DNA from: Balanoglossus misakiensis
Lineage: Eukaryota > Animalia > Hemichordata
Direction of reading: 5' to 3'
Length of the DNA: 64,000 bases
NCBI GenBank assembly: GCA_040954595.2
Contig: CM082597.2
Coordinates: 6,205,244 to 6,269,243, forward strand
Shown here: in pieces, positions 30,674-64,000 of the stretch
How the letters are laid out: the number at the start of each line of letters is the position of its first letter
How positions within the stretch are numbered: the first letter of the stretch is position 1
The notes under the pieces: generated by a model
Told to the model about the DNA's origin: nothing
Seen by the model: only the letters and a program-made list of their open reading frames with translations
Databases searched by the model: none
Program-made: the position numbers and the translations under genes

Positions 30674-30734
30674 ATGGCAGACTTTGATTGGTTTACGGAG
30701 TATCTTATAAGGCTGGCAGATGACATCGGAAATG
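30674..30734 (+). CDS. FADD-like adaptor, coding exon 1 (start of DED)
   Basis: aagATGg start; MADFDWFTEYLIRLADDIGN then G|gtgagt (phase 1), joining exon 31037 in frame. Confidence 0.8.
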
Positions 30735-31036
30735 GTGAGTGTACATTATAATGTTTTTATCCCTAAGTGAGTGGTGCTCTGAGACACTCATGGATGTCTA
30801 CCCATCTATAATGACATCATAGACAGCCCTTCAAACAGTATATCTACATCCTCAGTCACACATGCTTGAACTGATTTTATGCAAACTTGACACAAGGACA
30901 AAACTCTGTCATCCCATTTTCAATTTGAAATTTTAGACAGTGATCAGCTACTGTAATTTTAAAGTTTTTCTCGAGAGATTTATTTCCAGAAAAGGGTTTA
31001 CTTTACTATAATCTTTTCTTTTTTTTGCATTTACAG

Positions 31037-31371
31037 ATGACTTGATTAAATTGGTAGAAGGACTGGGTGCCTTAAAGAAACCTTCAATACCTACAGTTGT
31101 GAGGGAAGAAATTTTGAGAGAGAAACGGGCATATGTTTTGTTTGACAAGTTGGTAAAGTCTGGACATTTATCAAGGGACAAACCTGAGACACTTATTCAT
31201 CTGTTGAAAACTGCCAGACTTAACATGTTAGCAAAGCATGTAGAAGTTCGATATGAGAAAATGTTTGACAAAGACTATCCATATGATGAAGTGACAAGAG
31301 AAGCAGAGTCCAGGCCTAAAGTATCCACCACAGGATCTTATGGCAAGGACTTGCAGAATTTTACAATACAG
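31037..31371 (+). CDS. FADD-like adaptor, exon 2 (death effector domain)
   Basis: DDLIKLVEGLG...EEILREKRAYVLFDKLVKSGHLSRDKPETLIHLLKTARLNMLAKHVEVRY follows the DED pattern (LFxxLxxxGxLSxD..L..LL). Strong ttacag| acceptor; 3' boundary uncertain. Confidence 0.75.
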
Positions 31372-31767
31372 GTATGCATTTGTATTATGCAAATACCATG
31401 TTCACCCAAAATTATGATTTTGAAAGAGATGAAATGATAAAAAATAGACTATCTTCAGCTGGTCAAAGTGATAGAAACAAATGGAATTATAAAGTCATCT
31501 GTGCAGTTCAAATGGTCATGGTTTGATGTTGTCGTCACCAACCACAGACCAAGTCCTACATAATGGTTTGAATGCTCGCATTTGTGAACTAATGAGCCAA
31601 ATGTACATTGGGCACTAAATTGAAAATTTAATTTTGAAAAGAAATGGTGGTTAAGCATTTTGAGCAGTTGAACACTTAGAGTACCTGTGGTAATTGAAGT
31701 ATATTTTAATAGGAATTCTACACACAAGAATGAATTCAGCAGTGTTCACATACTTCAGGTTTTTCAG

Positions 31768-31988
31768 ATGTCGGTGATGTTGCTGCTAGCAGTGCAGTTA
31801 GTTCAGCTGCAACACAGATTGAGATGACGACAATGATGAAAGATCCAGAAGGTGAAACCACAAGTGTACAACACCACATAGACAGACATGATTTTAATCA
31901 ACTATATTCTTTGATGACAAGACTACTGTAGTTACAATCACCTATAGGCAACAAACTGATCCAGCTGTTGAGGACACTACAACCGCAG
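31768..31988 (+). CDS. FADD-like adaptor, putative linker exon (boundaries and frame unresolved)
   Basis: ttcag| and cag|gtaaac flank it. The 5' part reads VGDVAASSAVSSAATQIEMTT.. and the 3' part DDKTTVVTITYRQQTDPAVEDTTTA, in different frames. Confidence 0.4.
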
Positions 31989-32202
31989 GTAAACTTACTT
32001 TAGAAATCATCAGTGGAAAAGATGTGCAGAAATTATAGTCCAAAAAAGACACAAGATTTGAATAGTATGTATTTCAATGTTAGATAATAAATTCTATATT
32101 ATTTGGTTTTACATGTAACTACTGCTTATGAATGTATCAATGTTTTTTTATTTACAACAGCTGCAATGAATGGATTAATCCTATTCCTGTGTTTTTATTC
32201 AG

Positions 32203-32507
32203 TTGTCAACGCGGAGACACAGTACAGAGTTGACAAGGAACTAGATGAGAACGGTTGGAAGAACACAATCAGGAATCTGTTCATCGACGATGGGAGGGAT
32301 GGTGACAGAATTCTGGAAAATGCGGACCATGACCACAGAAAATTCGAGGAGAAGAAGTACGCAAGTCTGACAGAATGGAAGAAAAGGAGGGGCTATAAAG
32401 CCACAAATAGCGCATTGCAGCATGCTTTGAATAAAGCCGGGTGTATTTCGTTGGCGTCTACCCTTTCTAACGATTCGACCGAAGGCATACATTGCACACA
32501 GGTTTAG
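32203..32507 (+). CDS. FADD-like adaptor, last exon (death domain)
   Basis: ELDENGWKNTIRNL...ILENADHDHRKFEEKKYASLTEWKKRRGYKATNSALQHALNKAGCISLA shows the death-domain signature (WKxLxRxL...WxxxxGxxATxxxLxxAL); ttattcag| acceptor; TAG stop. Confidence 0.85.
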
Positions 32508-32714: not shown

Positions 32715-33270
32715 AATCATACATGTTGATACTTGCAAGATTTTGCAACCACATTACATCGCATACTCTTATGTTGGTTTATAATGCTATTTTTTCTTTC
32801 TATAGTTGACTACTGTTGCACTGTTTGGGGCAACACATCAAAAACCAATCTACAGAGAATTTATAAACTTCAGAAAAGAGCCGGCAGAGTAATTTTAGGA
32901 GTAGACATTACATTTCCTTCTCGTTCTCTTCTGACAACTCTTCATTGGTTGCCCATTGATCTTAGAATCGAGTATTTCATTGCTGTTCAAACTTTCAAGA
33001 TACTACATGGCCTGACGCCTGATTATTTAAATGAATTTTCCTATGTTTCTGACATGTACAATTTTACCACTAGATCTGTCAGCAACGCTAATTTGTATGT
33101 GCCCACTTTTAAAACAGCAACTGGGCAAAGGTCTTTTATGTATCGAGCATCAAATATCTGGAACAATATTCCCCTGTCTATAAGAAGTATATAAAGTCTG
33201 TCACAGTTCAAGTCACAACTACGTAACTTTTTTCACACTAAATTTATAAATGAAGGTTCATCACTTGATT
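32715..33270 (+). mobile_element. 5'-truncated, disrupted CR1/L2-group LINE ORF2 C-terminus
   Basis: DYCCTVWG...KLQKRAGRVILG...LHWLPIDLRI...GLTPDYL...RSFMYRASNIWNNIP; frameshift near 32790 and a premature stop. Confidence 0.88.
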
Positions 33271-42777: not shown

Positions 42778-43025
42778 TATCAATCAATCAATCAATCAAT
42801 CAGAGAAATTTGTATAGCGCCAGTATCTATAACAAGTGTCATACTCAAAGGCGCTTGTGCTCATTGGCCCACACCATATGCTCTTGCGAAATAATGCGTC
42901 TTCAGTCTTTTCTTAAAGATACTCAAACTTGGAGCTTGACGAATGTCTTGTGGCAGAGAGTTCCACAGTTTCGGTGCAGCATGTAAGAATGCTCGGCCAC
43001 CGTATGCGGCCACTGTTCCAATTTT
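42778..43025 (-). mobile_element. L2-type LINE 3' end with (GATT)n tail
   Basis: YGGRAFLHAAPKLWNSLPQDIRQAPSLSIFKKRLKTHYF, short 3'UTR with agcgcctttgag...ggcgctatacaaat, then gattgattgatt. Confidence 0.85.
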
Positions 43026-43542
43026 CACGTCTCGGACAACATCATTCAAACAAGCATATTTCAGACACACCTTCACCGTTGACAGCTCTCTGCTGTCCAT
43101 GCGTTTGAAAAGCTGCGTCTTTGATGTTGACACCTCAGACGTTCTCCATCTACGGGAGTCATGCATGCAACCTGCTGCTTTTATTTGAATTATCAAGGAT
43201 GGTGCGATACATCTGCAGTGGCAAATACTTGACCAAAACCGCAGCGACGTGAGATGTGATTTTCACGTGTTTACACCTGAGTGTGAAATCTTACACTGTC
43301 AAATGCTATGATACATGAAAGTGTGACACTTTGTTGTCATAAAATGATTAACGTATACAATGACAAGGACGTTCTTTACAAATTCAACTGCCCATTACAA
43401 CATAAATATAAGAATTGACTAAATTGTTAGTATTCCTGCGGAAATGTCACAGACCTAAGAGAAAACAGCTTACAGCTCCTCGACCCGGCTAATTAAATAT
43501 TCATGAGCCATACCAAACCACTCAGATAATCGGTGTTTCACT

Positions 43543-55480: not shown

Positions 55481-56592
55481 AGGCACATGAGCTGCAACTG
55501 GATAAAGAAAAGTTTTGAATCATCCTCTGTATGCCTTTAATTATGTCTATAAAATGATATTTCATGATAGTATATCAAGATCAACACTTATTTATGACAA
55601 AATGGCCAAAAATTACAGAAACTCGAAAATTCCTGCAATATTGCAATGAAAAATGAAAATGTAATATCTCAGTGGAGTACATTTAATTCCATAAGTTCTC
55701 GTGGATGAGACCATGCTTTTTTTTTTTCTTTTTTTTTCTCTTTTATTAAAAATCCTTACGTAATAAATGCAAAAGAGATAGAAAAATACAATCAAATCAA
55801 ATTATAAACTTTTTCAAATATATCCATTATGTTGGCTCTGCAATATATTTTTTTCTCTATGTTATATCTTAACTTAAATTCGTTCTTAAATACAACTTCA
55901 ATTGGTGTGTTCGTGTGACATATCCAATACTTATGAATGCTCCATTTACCCAGCAAAATCAAAAATTGTAGTACAAGGTTATAGTCTTTTGGGATGGTGT
56001 TGTCAAAAGAGTCAGCGAAAATTATATTAAGAGGAGTCACTCGTAGTGTTCTCCCTGTAATATTACAGATAATGTTGTTGACCTTTGTCCAGCACCTTTC
56101 AGCAATTTTACAATCTAAAAATCTATGTTCCAAGGAATCTTCTTGAGGACAAACAGGACAGTACATATAGTCTTTCAGCTTCCAAAAATACAAATATTTG
56201 TTGCACGGAAGTAAACGGTTTAAAAGTTTCCATTGAAAAGCTCTAAGTTTTATCTCGTAAGTAATGGTGTACACACGTTTCCAAATGTTACGACTTACCA
56301 CATCAATATCCCTAGGTGTAACTTGAAGATTGTGAAACCATTTTTCAAGACCATGCTTTGTTTATGAAATTTCATACCCAAAAATACAATGTCTTCATTT
56401 TCCCACGGTGGCGGCTATATTCCTTTGCGGCAAAGCTTTATTGTGTATCTGGTTAAAACTTGCATATGCACTCATATTTGGGGTTTATAATGCTTGTGTA
56501 TAGTTCAGTGCCTTCATCTGCGTGGTCTAATGGTTGTACAGTTTGGAAGAAAATTATGAAAAATTATCCCAAAAGTTGCAACGTATGTGCCT
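55481..56592. mobile_element. TTAA-flanked Kolobok-like element carrying a nested LINE
   Basis: ttaa|aggcacatgagctgcaact ... agttgcaacgtatgtgcct|ttaa. Confidence 0.7.
55720..56347 (-). mobile_element. 5'-truncated L1/Tx1-clade LINE (zf-RVT C-terminus) with A-rich tail and 12 bp TSD
   Basis: KLRAFQWKLLNRLLPCNKYL...CPVCPQEDSLEHRFLDC (CCHC-type motif); T-run at 55717-55747; TSD agaccatgcttt at 55708-55719 and 56348-56359. Confidence 0.88.
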
Positions 56593-58290: not shown

Positions 58291-58365
58291 ATTTCTCAAC
58301 AACAATCAAAATGTCCCTTTGAACATAGACTTAACTCTCACTTATTTCTGTCACTTCACATGAAG

Positions 58366-58761
58366 ATTCACCGTACGTGTTGATGGCGACTGTATGTGTA
58401 TGGTCTATGAAGTTTACTGCCAGCAACCTGATGACAACCGTCCCTATTTCCACGGTGCCGAAAACCATTGCACGGAGGTGTCTGTGAGCCCACATGGACC
58501 CAAAGGCCGGCTGGCCATTCTCAGAAACAGCACCATCGACTCCATGGTGCGCGACTTCATCAAGACGAACAACTTCCACCAACCGCCCTGCATCACTAGA
58601 CATGGATTCTGGATTGGTTTGCTTGACCATCTGGAAGAGGGGAAATTTGTCTGGAGCGATGGGGGCGCACTCTGTCAAGACGACTTCAGGAACTGGGCTC
58701 CCGGTGAACCCAACAACAACGTCAACAAGGACCCGAACGGACAAGGTTGCGTTCAGTTATG
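58366..58761 (+). CDS. C-type lectin domain, main exon
   Basis: FHGAENHC...GRLAIL...FWIGLLDHLEEGKFVWSDG...FRNWAPGEPNN...CVQLW contains the WIGL and EPN motifs; TG|gtaag donor. Confidence 0.93.
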
Positions 58762-58836
58762 GTAAGAAGTTCATTACAGTCGAAGGAATCAGATATGTTT
58801 GTCGTACAAAACGTGGTCTCGCTGTTTTGTCTTTAA

Positions 58837-60619: not shown

Positions 60620-60660
60620 CTGCGGAAGAGGCTTAGTCACGTGACTGTGGTTTGCACTAC
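60620..60660. promoter_or_regulatory. Candidate promoter of the LRR-caspase gene (ETS-like cggaag and palindromic E-box AGTCACGTGACT)
   Basis: Motifs seen directly, followed by a possible donor (ccg|gtatgt, ~60753) and a non-coding exon candidate at ~62525-62695. Confidence 0.35.
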
Positions 60661-62295
60661 ATCCTTCCTGCTTGTAAGTTGAACGATGGAGATTTTCACC
60701 TTGTAGCGAATTGTTCATCAAATGTTCTGAAGTCACCCGATATATCGGACCGGTATGTAGCTTTAGCTTTCTAAGGCAAGTGCTCTTTGAATTAATTTTC
60801 GTGTTTGTTGGTCAGAATCATGTACACAGCCGAGACTCGAAATGTCGTGTACGACTAGACAGTGTAGACAAATATGGCGACTGTAATGAGTAAACAACAT
60901 CATAGCATGCTTTGGAAATGAAATGAAATGAAATGAAATGGTGGTGGTTTTTGCCGAAATTGCAATCGTTGCCAACACTTATTAAGCAGCTACAGCCAAT
61001 GACCACCCGATATAGTTTAGAATGTAATAGTTAATGTGCTTTTCTGAACAAAAAACATGACAATGTTCAAGAAATATAAATCACGCCTTCTGTAAACGCC
61101 CACTCAAAAACACCAAACGCCAACGTTCCTGTTTCCATGTCACCTGTAGTTACACCACAGGGAACATAAAACATGATATAGGTATATTGTTGTTGGTGTT
61201 GATGTTTACGTGCTTTTGTTAATGTTGTTGGAAAATAAAATAGGTGCATTGTTAGATCCCCTTTGGTTATGTATATATGTACCATGGGACCTTATGGAAT
61301 CGGTTGCGTATGTCTGTAATAATAATTTGTTTGTTTATATTGTTGTTGTTGTTCAACTTGTTGGCTAATAAAATTGAATCCATAAGTTGTCGGTGTTGTA
61401 ATTTGTAAATAATATCAAAAGAACAACAATTACTGGGGCCCGCTCTAAAACTAGGGTTAGGGTTTTCTGGTACATCCATGGTTGGGACCCAGTGTTTTTC
61501 ATAGTTGTGGAGCCCTAGTAATTATGTCGTTCTTTTTCTCTTATTCACAACGCCAACAAGGTAAAGGAATCAATGTTTTTATCAAACAGCAAAATCATGT
61601 CAACAACAACAACAACAACAACAAAACATACCAATATCATATAACTCTGACATTCTTGCATGGCTCGAAATTAACTAGCCTGTCACATGCCAACTGACTA
61701 CTAACTTTGCAAAATGGTAGTCACCACAACTTCCACAGTTTGTGTTCATCGGGAGACCAAGATGTTTTTCGTATGGAACTTGAAATTTAGTTGTGTGTGT
61801 TTTTCCAGATATGCAGCAAACCTAGTACAAAGACTGACAGAAAATGTGCTTTTCACGTGCAACAGGAAATACTGGTACATGTGCTTGTATCATGGTATAG
61901 TACACGTACTCAGTTATTTCCTGTTGTTTGGCCAACAATTGACCTCATAACCTTTTGGCAACATGGAACTTGATTCAAAATGACAGTGGCCTCAGGGAAA
62001 AGGTTTATTGTAGTGGTTGTCAGTCATGAATTTTGAAATACAGCATTGTTTTACAAAAGGAAATAATTATAGACATTATTGTCAGACGGTCACTGATAAA
62101 AGAGTAGAGGTCAGTTTAGTTCCAGGAATGAGTGACTGTATGTCGTGCGCTTTCTACCTGTGGTATTTCTGAAATATTATCTTCCTAGTTGATGTGAATT
62201 CCACTATTGTGCATGCCCTCTCAATAGCCAGTCCTAACAGCACAGTAACCAAACTAGAGCCATGGGGTATACAGAATATTGTATCTTTCTCCCCA

Positions 62296-62334
<39 letters not shown>

Positions 62335-62894
62335 ACACGTAAGGGTCAATTAACTTTTAACAATTAATTTTTATGTTTTTTTTTAGGTCCCTTTGGTGTA
62401 TCATTATGTATACCAGTGGGACCTTATGGGATTGGTTGCATCTGTATGTATGTATGTAGGTCTGTCCACATCAAACACTCGAAAACTGTTGCGCATATTA
62501 CCTCAATATTTTTTTGTTTTTCAGATGTTTGTGGCTGTCGAGTTCACCGGATAATCACACTGCAGTAGAGGGAACTTGTCGCAGAAGATAGTGTTTCAAA
62601 GGTGTTGCAGGGAGCAGTCAACAAACGGAAAACAGGACATTGGAAATTCGATCTCTCTGATTATAATTAATTGTAATGACTGACTGATACAGAAGGTTAT
62701 GGACATTACATGCACAGAAACGGAGAAACTAAATTCGATGTCAGAAAGGAGATTTATTTCATCATGTATAAGTGTGTGACATTGAGGTTCATTTATTTGC
62801 TATCTGATCAATAGGCACTTCACAAAGTGTAAATTGCAAAATAGCTGTTCCAGTTTAAATTTTCTTTGACAAGGTTAGGACAAAATAGTACAGC

Positions 62895-63741
62895 ATGTCG
62901 ACTCCCATTGAGTTTCTCAATTCAGATTTGATATTAGTGCCTTCGGAAATCTGCAAGAGGAAAGATGCCAAACAGATATGGCTATGGCATAATAGACTCA
63001 CATACCTGCCAGATAAATTCAGCAAATTGAAAAGGTTGAAAGAAGTGTATTTGAACGGCAACCAGTTTTCAACGTTTCCGACAGTGCTATGTGGTCTCCA
63101 CTCGCTGAAGATTTTAGACTTGTCCAGCAATAACTTGAGCAGTCTCCCGTCGGACATGCATCTGTCGAATCTAAGCAAGCTTGTTCTGGTCAGTAACCAG
63201 TTCCAGAGATTTCCGGAAGAAGTTGTGGAAATGAAAGCATTGGAGGAACTGTACTTGGGTTGGAATAAGCTGAGCGCTCTTCCGGCTTGTGTGTCCCGGA
63301 TGAAAAAGCTGTCAGTCCTTCGAGTCAACAACAACGAGATTGTTGTCATCCCAGAAGAGGTTTGTCAATTAGAGAGTTTACGGGAGTTCAACGTTTCGGA
63401 CAACCAAGTCGTCAGTATAAACACGGTGATGCAGTCCCTGCTCGAGTCCTTGCCTGCCTTCTGTTACTCCGGCAACCCCTGTCATCACACTGATGCACCG
63501 GTTGCTAGGAGAAGAAGTGACATCATCGTCCTGAGACCGGTGACTCCTCCTCCTCCTCCTCCTCCTTCGACGGTTTCCATGGTGACAAGTCCTGACAATG
63601 ACGACATGTATGACTGCTACAAGATGGACACAGACCCGGTGGGCATCGCAGTTATCATCAACAATGTGGAGTTCAGGAGGAATCATAATGATCCAAGAAG
63701 TAGACAGTTACCAGACAGACCTGGCAGTGAAGTAGATGCAG
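62895..63741 (+). CDS. LRR-caspase fusion protein, first coding exon (about 7 LRRs, Pro-rich linker, start of caspase p20); continues beyond the right edge
   Basis: LxxLxLxxNxL repeats of ~23 aa ending in a GNP cap, then YKMDTDPVGIAVIINNVEF...LPDRPGSEVDA (compare caspase-3 YKMDYPEMGLCIIINNKNF...RSGTDVDA); donor G|gtatat after 63741. Confidence 0.9.
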
Positions 63742-64000
63742 GTATATATACATGTAAATCTCTCGACACCACAGTCAACTTGTCCTCATTTTTAGAGAAT
63801 TTTTGTAATTTACAAAATAAAGAAAGCTTAACCATGGTAAATATGGAGAAAAGTTTTCATTAGTAGCATCTTACATTATTAGTGAATTTACATATCTAGG
63901 TAAATTTAATAGGTAAAATAACATACTAGCTAAAAAGACATGTTTTATTGTAACACACGTCATCCACAGACTATGTTCTCATTCGTCAATTGCTAGTCAC

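Follow-up and report, generated by a model that had tools for sequence, protein, structure and literature searches.

An LRR-Caspase Gene of the Acorn Worm Balanoglossus misakiensis, with Active-Type and Catalytically Dead Relatives in the Caspase-8 Clade

Introduction

Animal initiator caspases are recruited via CARD, DED or Death domains, and their general biochemistry is one of clustering, dimerization and cleavage at an inter-subunit Asp; caspase-8-type domains normally need induced dimerization. Leucine-rich-repeat (LRR) proteins are coupled to caspases in the PIDD1-RAIDD-caspase-2 system and in NLR inflammasomes, where death-fold adaptors connect separate chains. Here we analyzed a gene in a 64,000-nucleotide stretch of DNA (the window) from the acorn worm Balanoglossus misakiensis that encodes LRRs and the start of a caspase domain in one exon. 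Its full-length relatives fall into hemichordate orthologues that retain the catalytic residues (group A) and LRR-pseudocaspases that lack the catalytic Cys (group B). Like the PIDD and NLR platforms, an LRR-caspase would couple a cytosolic LRR protein to caspase activation; unlike them, the Ptychodera flava orthologue (P0006) had no NACHT/NB-ARC, ZU5, Death or CARD domain in a Pfam scan, which also found no DED. With caspase-8/10 (DED-DED-caspase; MEROPS C14A), the likeness extends to the caspase domain, which in groups A and B falls in the same clade, and to the QACQG motif, His-Cys dyad, S1 residues and long L1 loop of the group A orthologues. The LRR-caspase differs in having seven LRRs and no DEDs, so that it would not be recruited through FADD or DED filaments.

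The combination of LRRs and a caspase has been named before. Zhang et al. (2008; PMC2575513) list “LRRs-caspase” among the hybrid genes of amphioxus, with QACXG kept, and propose that it links pathogen recognition directly to apoptosis as a “shortcut”. None of the 16 cDNA-verified rows in their Additional Table 5 is an LRRs-caspase, which stands there as gene models only. What they share with the family analyzed here is a single chain that holds both LRRs and a QACXG caspase, together with the proposed role. A sequence-only reading of the window had not recognized this architecture as a characterized one, which holds experimentally but not in print, the amphioxus gene models having been named in that paper. 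The same reading offered the sensor shortcut as its own inference; the idea was already published in 2008 (PMC2575513), and the catalytic residues retained by the group A orthologues speak in its favor. The accessible portions of PMC2858798, PMC8195603, PMC11508797 and PMC10155998 contain no mention of an LRR-caspase family, and a term search for LRR in the accessible text of PMC3196919 gave 0 matches. Nor did the searched literature, to which most subscription journals do not belong and beyond which a survey may mention them, describe any LRR-caspase from hemichordates or echinoderms, group B included. Public annotations already contain these LRR-caspase proteins under generic names. What appears to be undescribed in the literature searched is a family derived from caspase-8 that has both an active and a dead branch, and not the architecture named earlier for amphioxus. 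At about 550 amino acids, this conserved, LRR-bearing offshoot of caspase-8 is compact and intact and lets the “shortcut protein” hypothesis of 2008 be tested on a natural example, and the ligands of its LRRs, once found, would reveal new inputs to caspase signaling in the sister group of the chordates.

Results and Discussion

A single open exon joins an LRR array to the start of a caspase domain

We confirmed that the LRRs and the caspase start lie in one open exon, with which the coding part of a genuine animal gene begins. The frame on the + strand runs from the ATG at 62895-62897 to a splice donor (GCAG/GT) whose last exon base is 63741 and whose GT occupies 63742-63743. The features of the locus are:

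62860-62873, + strand: candidate splice acceptor, a pyrimidine tract followed by AAG (predicted from the sequence)
62874-62894, + strand: predicted 5′ UTR that includes an in-frame stop, the exon opening at 62874 if the acceptor is used
62886-62888, + strand: in-frame TAG, 9 nt 5′ of the start codon (sequence)
62895-62966, + strand: start codon and N-terminal cap or partial repeat, residues 1-24, collinear with the N termini of the P. flava and Glandiceps talaboti orthologues
62967-63482, + strand: seven cytosolic LRRs of 22-24 residues and a C-terminal cap ending in GNP, residues 25-196 (Pfam, orthologue alignment)
63483-63608, + strand: variable linker, residues 197-238 (42 residues), containing the Pro run encoded by (CCT)7 and, abutting the caspase domain, an acidic motif that is conserved
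63609-63741, + strand: opening 44 residues of a large subunit of caspase-8 type, with strand 1, the long L1 loop and the S1 Arg, R275
63742-64000, + strand: start of an intron, donor GT, phase 1 (sequence)

Re-reading of the sequence and Pfam bore out the extent (62895-63741) and content that the sequence-only reading had given for the exon, the LRR region matching LRR_8 with an E value of 1.4e-21. The roughly seven cytosolic-type LRRs with a GNP cap that it described are seven full repeats, starting at residues 25, 48, 71, 93, 116, 139 and 162, and a cap strand that reaches GNP at residues 186-196. It was also right that the exon product has no signal peptide; neither this nor a membrane stretch was found, the maximum 19-residue hydropathy being 0.74 in the first 40 residues and 1.17 overall. 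The S1 Arg that it had placed in the caspase start aligns as R275 (codon 63717-63719). The poly-Pro linker fared less well: its seven Pro are present but encoded by a lineage-specific microsatellite (63546-63566) that the orthologues do not conserve as a feature. Just ahead of the large subunit, the window exon and both orthologues have an acidic motif in common, which is a candidate self-cleavage site.

The same reading took the LRR array for the N terminus of the protein, in agreement with the in-frame TAG upstream and with the P. flava and G. talaboti orthologues, both of which begin at the equivalent Met. If the array were internal instead, the exons at 30674-32507 for a DED (E 5.7e-4 to 8.8e-4) and a Death domain (E 6e-5), on the same strand and about 30 kb upstream, could be spliced onto it to yield a DED-DD-LRR-caspase, and an AG does stand directly before the start codon. 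However, that AG (62892-62893) is preceded by pyrimidines at 6 of 20 positions, while the better acceptor (62874) runs into the in-frame TAG. The Death exon ends in its own stop (32505-32507), a lectin exon intervenes, and the two orthologues start without any death-fold domain. We find an internal LRR array scarcely credible.

The caspase piece is weakly recognizable on its own (Pfam Peptidase_C14, E 0.26), and all 60 matches listed in a PDB search were caspase-3 or -8 (best E 0.076). Compared with its relatives, it scores far above chance by alignment (100-195 overall, versus maxima of 44-51 in 500 shuffles), with scores for residues 233-282 of 195 against P0006, 161 against the G. talaboti orthologue (P0008) and 128 against oyster caspase-8, for which the shuffle maxima were 48-50. 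The long L1 loop is closest to that of molluscan caspase-8. The catalytic His, the catalytic Cys and the small subunit are encoded beyond position 64000, so all statements on catalysis by the window gene rest on its orthologues, from which we infer that the gene continues into intact catalytic exons. Because these exons lie outside the window, and because group B demonstrates loss of catalysis (Cys gone in 8/8), one may ask if this copy is a decoy or a broken gene, with an inactive caspase, with exons lost or with a product limited to the LRRs by intron retention. The exon is, however, of group A, with the S1 Arg and L1 loop kept and a large subunit 69% identical to that of P0006 over 49 positions; its frame is intact, and its GT donor leaves a phase-1 G compatible with the next residues of the orthologues (Glu, Gly). 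A decoy or broken copy is, in our judgment, very improbable. Reading on into the intron from 63742 yields 41 residues, unlike the helix that comes next in the orthologues, before a stop at 63861-63863. When the gathered proteins shorter than 1700 aa were compared with the window by tblastn, no additional exon for a caspase or an LRR came up.

Hemichordate orthologues carry a complete caspase

P0006 (XP_070548498.1, 551 aa, named “caspase-8-like” in its source) and P0008 (XP_077985432.1, 565 aa) align with the exon over 100% of its length, at 48 and 47% identity, respectively, and were the only two proteins with both LRRs and Peptidase_C14 among the best 120 of 522 matches in a search of longer proteins. 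The window LRRs are 53% and 50% identical to those of P0006 and P0008, versus 32-36% for group B, which places the exon in group A. Both full-length orthologues have SHG, QACQG and a complete caspase, with all S1 residues and the His-Cys dyad (equivalents of Arg179, His237, Gln283, Cys285 and Arg341, in what we take to be caspase-1 numbering), and share a D-A-L-P motif in the inter-subunit linker. Pfam found no DED in the window exon, and there is none among the precomputed domains of P0008.

The large and small subunits of the caspase fold, of which the window holds the first 44 residues, are both present in P0006 (Pfam, Foldseek), where Pfam also recognized LRR families (Peptidase_C14, E 1.8e-57). 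Its best caspase matches in the PDB by sequence were caspase-8, and the top three Foldseek rows were entries titled caspase-8/caspase-3 peptide complexes, with a TM score by target of 0.83 against caspase structures. The AlphaFold model of P0006 (mean pLDDT 61, with 79-94 over most of the LRR and values below 50 in the linkers) shows a predicted LRR solenoid and caspase fold on a disordered tether. Structure neighbors of P0006 in the ESM Atlas were caspase clusters and LRR clusters, separately; neither P0006 nor the group B protein P0296 had a usable feature match there. Within group A, identity was 0.52-0.53 for the LRR and 0.58-0.71 for the subunits but 0.19-0.34 for the linkers, a pattern as expected if purifying selection acts on both domains. 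We judge the LRR-caspase gene to be conserved and probably catalytically active. The matches listed contained one group A protein per hemichordate species and none outside the hemichordates, the latter being weak evidence of absence. A search of metagenome contigs for related loci gave 62 pattern matches, of which 0 were confirmed.

The caspase domain nests in the caspase-8 clade

The sequence-only reading had called for a caspase-domain phylogeny, and we built trees of 55 rows (LG+G4) and 34 rows (C20 mixture), picked from 141 caspase-profile matches. The rows dropped were mostly teleost caspase-8 and unnamed near-duplicates, along with the window fragment, too short to include. Groups A and B fell inside a clade with every sampled DED caspase-8/10, with support of 99/95 (55 rows) and 97/96 (34 rows); this clade also includes seven (55 rows) and three (34 rows) unnamed rows without an annotated DED, and the trees are free of named ambulacrarian DED-caspase-8, c-FLIP, caspase-2 and caspase-9. 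By these trees, groups A and B nest in the caspase-8 clade without carrying DEDs. A caspase-8-clade domain without tandem DEDs makes these proteins caspase-8 derivatives and not canonical members of caspase-8/10. The suggestion in that reading that the LRR replaces a death-fold prodomain is thus in line with both the tree and the domain content of P0006, in which the LRR sits on a caspase-8-type domain with no death-fold domain.

Both best trees joined the two groups as sisters on weak support (82/86 for 55 rows, 69/24 for 34 rows). The register of the A and B repeats was better than in most permutations (rank 48 of 5040), although the register was picked by the aligner, and the group B LRRs ranked 15-220 among about 300 LRR matches of group A. 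In view of this sister support, the 15-220 ranks and the differing concave faces, we do not take a single origin of the two groups as established; the LRR comparisons do not settle if there was one LRR fusion or two. A further candidate relative, P0335 (Branchiostoma floridae XP_002614028.1), is an LRR-Roc-COR-caspase of 1609 aa with QACRG that fell outside the clade and was rejected from groups A and B (p-AU 0.0104, 34-row tree). It is a Roco GTPase with a caspase at its end, of separate origin, and the one amphioxus protein with LRRs and a caspase among the matches listed here; it may differ from the models of Zhang et al. (PMC2575513).

A family of LRR-pseudocaspases in echinoderms and an acorn worm

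A search with P0006 returned six LRR + caspase proteins among the 120 matches listed, the query included, and a profile search returned five among 120, none of them new. An exhaustive profile search (150 matches listed, the remainder being long LRR proteins) added Patiria miniata XP_038068936.1, P. flava XP_070570358.1 and one amphioxus protein. Altogether, 12 of the 435 gathered proteins matched both LRR and caspase profiles, a count that includes the query and the seven members of the profile. Group B comprises eight full-length proteins (P0126, P0130, P0132, P0134, P0241, P0296, P0435 and P0361) from Anneissia, Antedon, Amphiura, Patiria (two near-copies) and P. flava, plus two unnamed near-copies, and so ranges over crinoids, a brittle star, a sea star and an acorn worm. 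The catalytic Cys is missing in all eight and the His in five (it is kept in three); the small-subunit Arg is missing in 4/4 proteins examined. Pfam found no DED in P0296, P0361, P0126 or P0132. The source names vary, from “caspase-8-like” and “caspase-2-like” to a Ras GEF label. In group B, an N-terminal motif and the LRR face are almost invariant, and the C-terminal strand of the caspase dimer interface is retained.

The presence of group B in a hemichordate and three echinoderm classes suggests that it likely dates to the ambulacrarian ancestor. Group B thus represents a pseudo-caspase, apparently undescribed, that is conserved from crinoids, brittle stars and sea stars to acorn worms and can be reached in a laboratory model, Patiria miniata. 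Active-type group A and catalytically dead group B coexist in P. flava, and a group B caspase-8-clade domain without the catalytic Cys beside group A resembles the c-FLIP/caspase-8 pair. PDB entry 3h11, among the P0006 matches, is presumably that pair. Unlike it, groups A and B carry LRRs and no DEDs, B also occurs in echinoderms in which no A was found, the LRR faces of A and B are unlike each other (0.18 versus a control of 0.14), and the likeness was drawn from trees without c-FLIP.

A conserved concave face and a proposed fixed partner

Among the three group A proteins, concave-face positions were identical in 108 of 168 comparisons in register (0.64) versus 102 of 1008 off register (0.10); other exposed positions reached 0.24. 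The figures for four group B proteins were 0.73 in register, 0.11 between different repeats and 0.29 at other exposed positions, and the A-B comparison in register gave the 0.18 cited above. Invariant columns made up 14 of 28 concave versus 7 of 56 other positions in group A, and 14 of 28 versus 4 of 56 in six group B proteins. The conserved concave positions of group A include exposed Trp residues. Thus, each group appears to have retained a ligand surface of its own over long times. LRR receptors for pathogens typically have hypervariable faces and expanded gene families. A concave face conserved within a group is the opposite of what diversifying receptors display and favors a fixed partner.

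We propose that the gene encodes a hemichordate caspase-8-derived protease in which seven LRRs stand in place of two DEDs, and that its LRR face docks on one conserved intracellular partner to bring about dimerization and self-activation without a FADD-type adaptor. This proposal draws on three group A sequences, and we hold the arguments for and against it to be about evenly balanced. In the proposed mechanism, the LRR face would dock the protein on one fixed intracellular partner, and clustering on that partner would, by the general biochemistry of initiator caspases, lead the caspase domains to dimerize. The dimer would then self-cleave at the inter-subunit Asp, in the D-A-L-P motif, and could be released from the LRR by a cut in the acidic motif that precedes the large subunit. 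The freed protease would cut Asp substrates, such as effector caspases. The conserved face also fits a conserved microbial ligand or a substrate.

A microbial ligand is the premise of a one-component pathogen sensor, in which the LRR itself would contact a microbial molecule or effector, and clustering brought about by this ligand would switch on the caspase to kill the infected cell. LRRs and an active-type caspase in one chain suit such a sensor, as does the presence in the window of a C-type lectin exon and of a gene that combines DED and Death domains; it is also the role already proposed for the amphioxus LRRs-caspase models in PMC2575513. But the concave face is conserved and not variable, P. 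flava has one group A and one group B protein among the 120-150 matches listed, and a NACHT-type oligomerizer is absent. A pathogen sensor is therefore unlikely in our estimate, and the term sensor, as used in the sequence-only reading, is doubtful in the pathogen-receptor sense, given a conserved ligand face and one group A protein per species among the matches listed.

We give similarly little credence to the LRR as a substrate-targeting, localizing or autoinhibitory module of a non-apoptotic protease, that is, one that does not drive dimerization. A conserved concave face would suit a fixed substrate or an intramolecular contact, and the group B face is equally conserved, albeit different, where the catalytic Cys is gone, which implies that the LRR-caspase layout has value without proteolysis. 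The variable, predicted-disordered linker argues against a fixed intramolecular clamp, however, and the usual need of caspase-8-type domains for induced dimerization argues for the LRR as dimerization driver, as in our preferred reading of docking on one partner. Extending that preferred reading to both groups is more tentative still. An adaptor-free caspase-8 pathway may have existed in ambulacrarians since their common ancestor, when one DED-to-LRR swap would have given rise to an active LRR-caspase and a dead sister that tunes, in the manner of c-FLIP, either the LRR-caspase or canonical caspase-8, each with its own conserved LRR ligand. If true, this would represent a natural initiator caspase activated without any death-fold domain, and the caspase-8/FLIP switch would have been invented a second time, independently.

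Surroundings of the gene and other observations

The window contains other features upstream of the LRR-caspase exon:

about 30674-32507, + strand: four-exon FADD-like gene, DED-linker-Death (Pfam, E values as above)
30674-30734 and 31037-31371, + strand: DED of that gene, split over two exons in compatible phase 1
near 31760-31988, + strand: Ser/Thr-rich exon of that gene
32203-32507, + strand: Death-domain exon, ending in the TAG at 32505-32507
32730-33194, + strand, and 42861-43262, - strand: retroelement-like fragments, LINE ORF2 tails by eye, no Pfam match
55792-56361, - strand: retroelement-like fragment (zf-RVT, E 7.7e-8)
58364-58762, + strand: C-type lectin domain exon, about 4 kb upstream of the LRR-caspase (Pfam Lectin_C, E 2e-6)

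The FADD-like gene is possibly a remnant neighbor of a caspase-8 locus. About 2 kb upstream of the ATG, at 60634-60646, lies the palindromic GTCACGTGAC, which we take to be an E-box, and a motif at about 60870-60885 presumably resembles a YY1 site; the two possibly mark the promoter and non-coding first exon of the LRR-caspase. A sigma-70 promoter scan of the window, with a bacterial model inapplicable to an animal, gave no match. Another caspase with a partner outside the death fold was seen in the ESM Atlas, where a 92-member arthropod cluster combines a protein kinase with a caspase domain.
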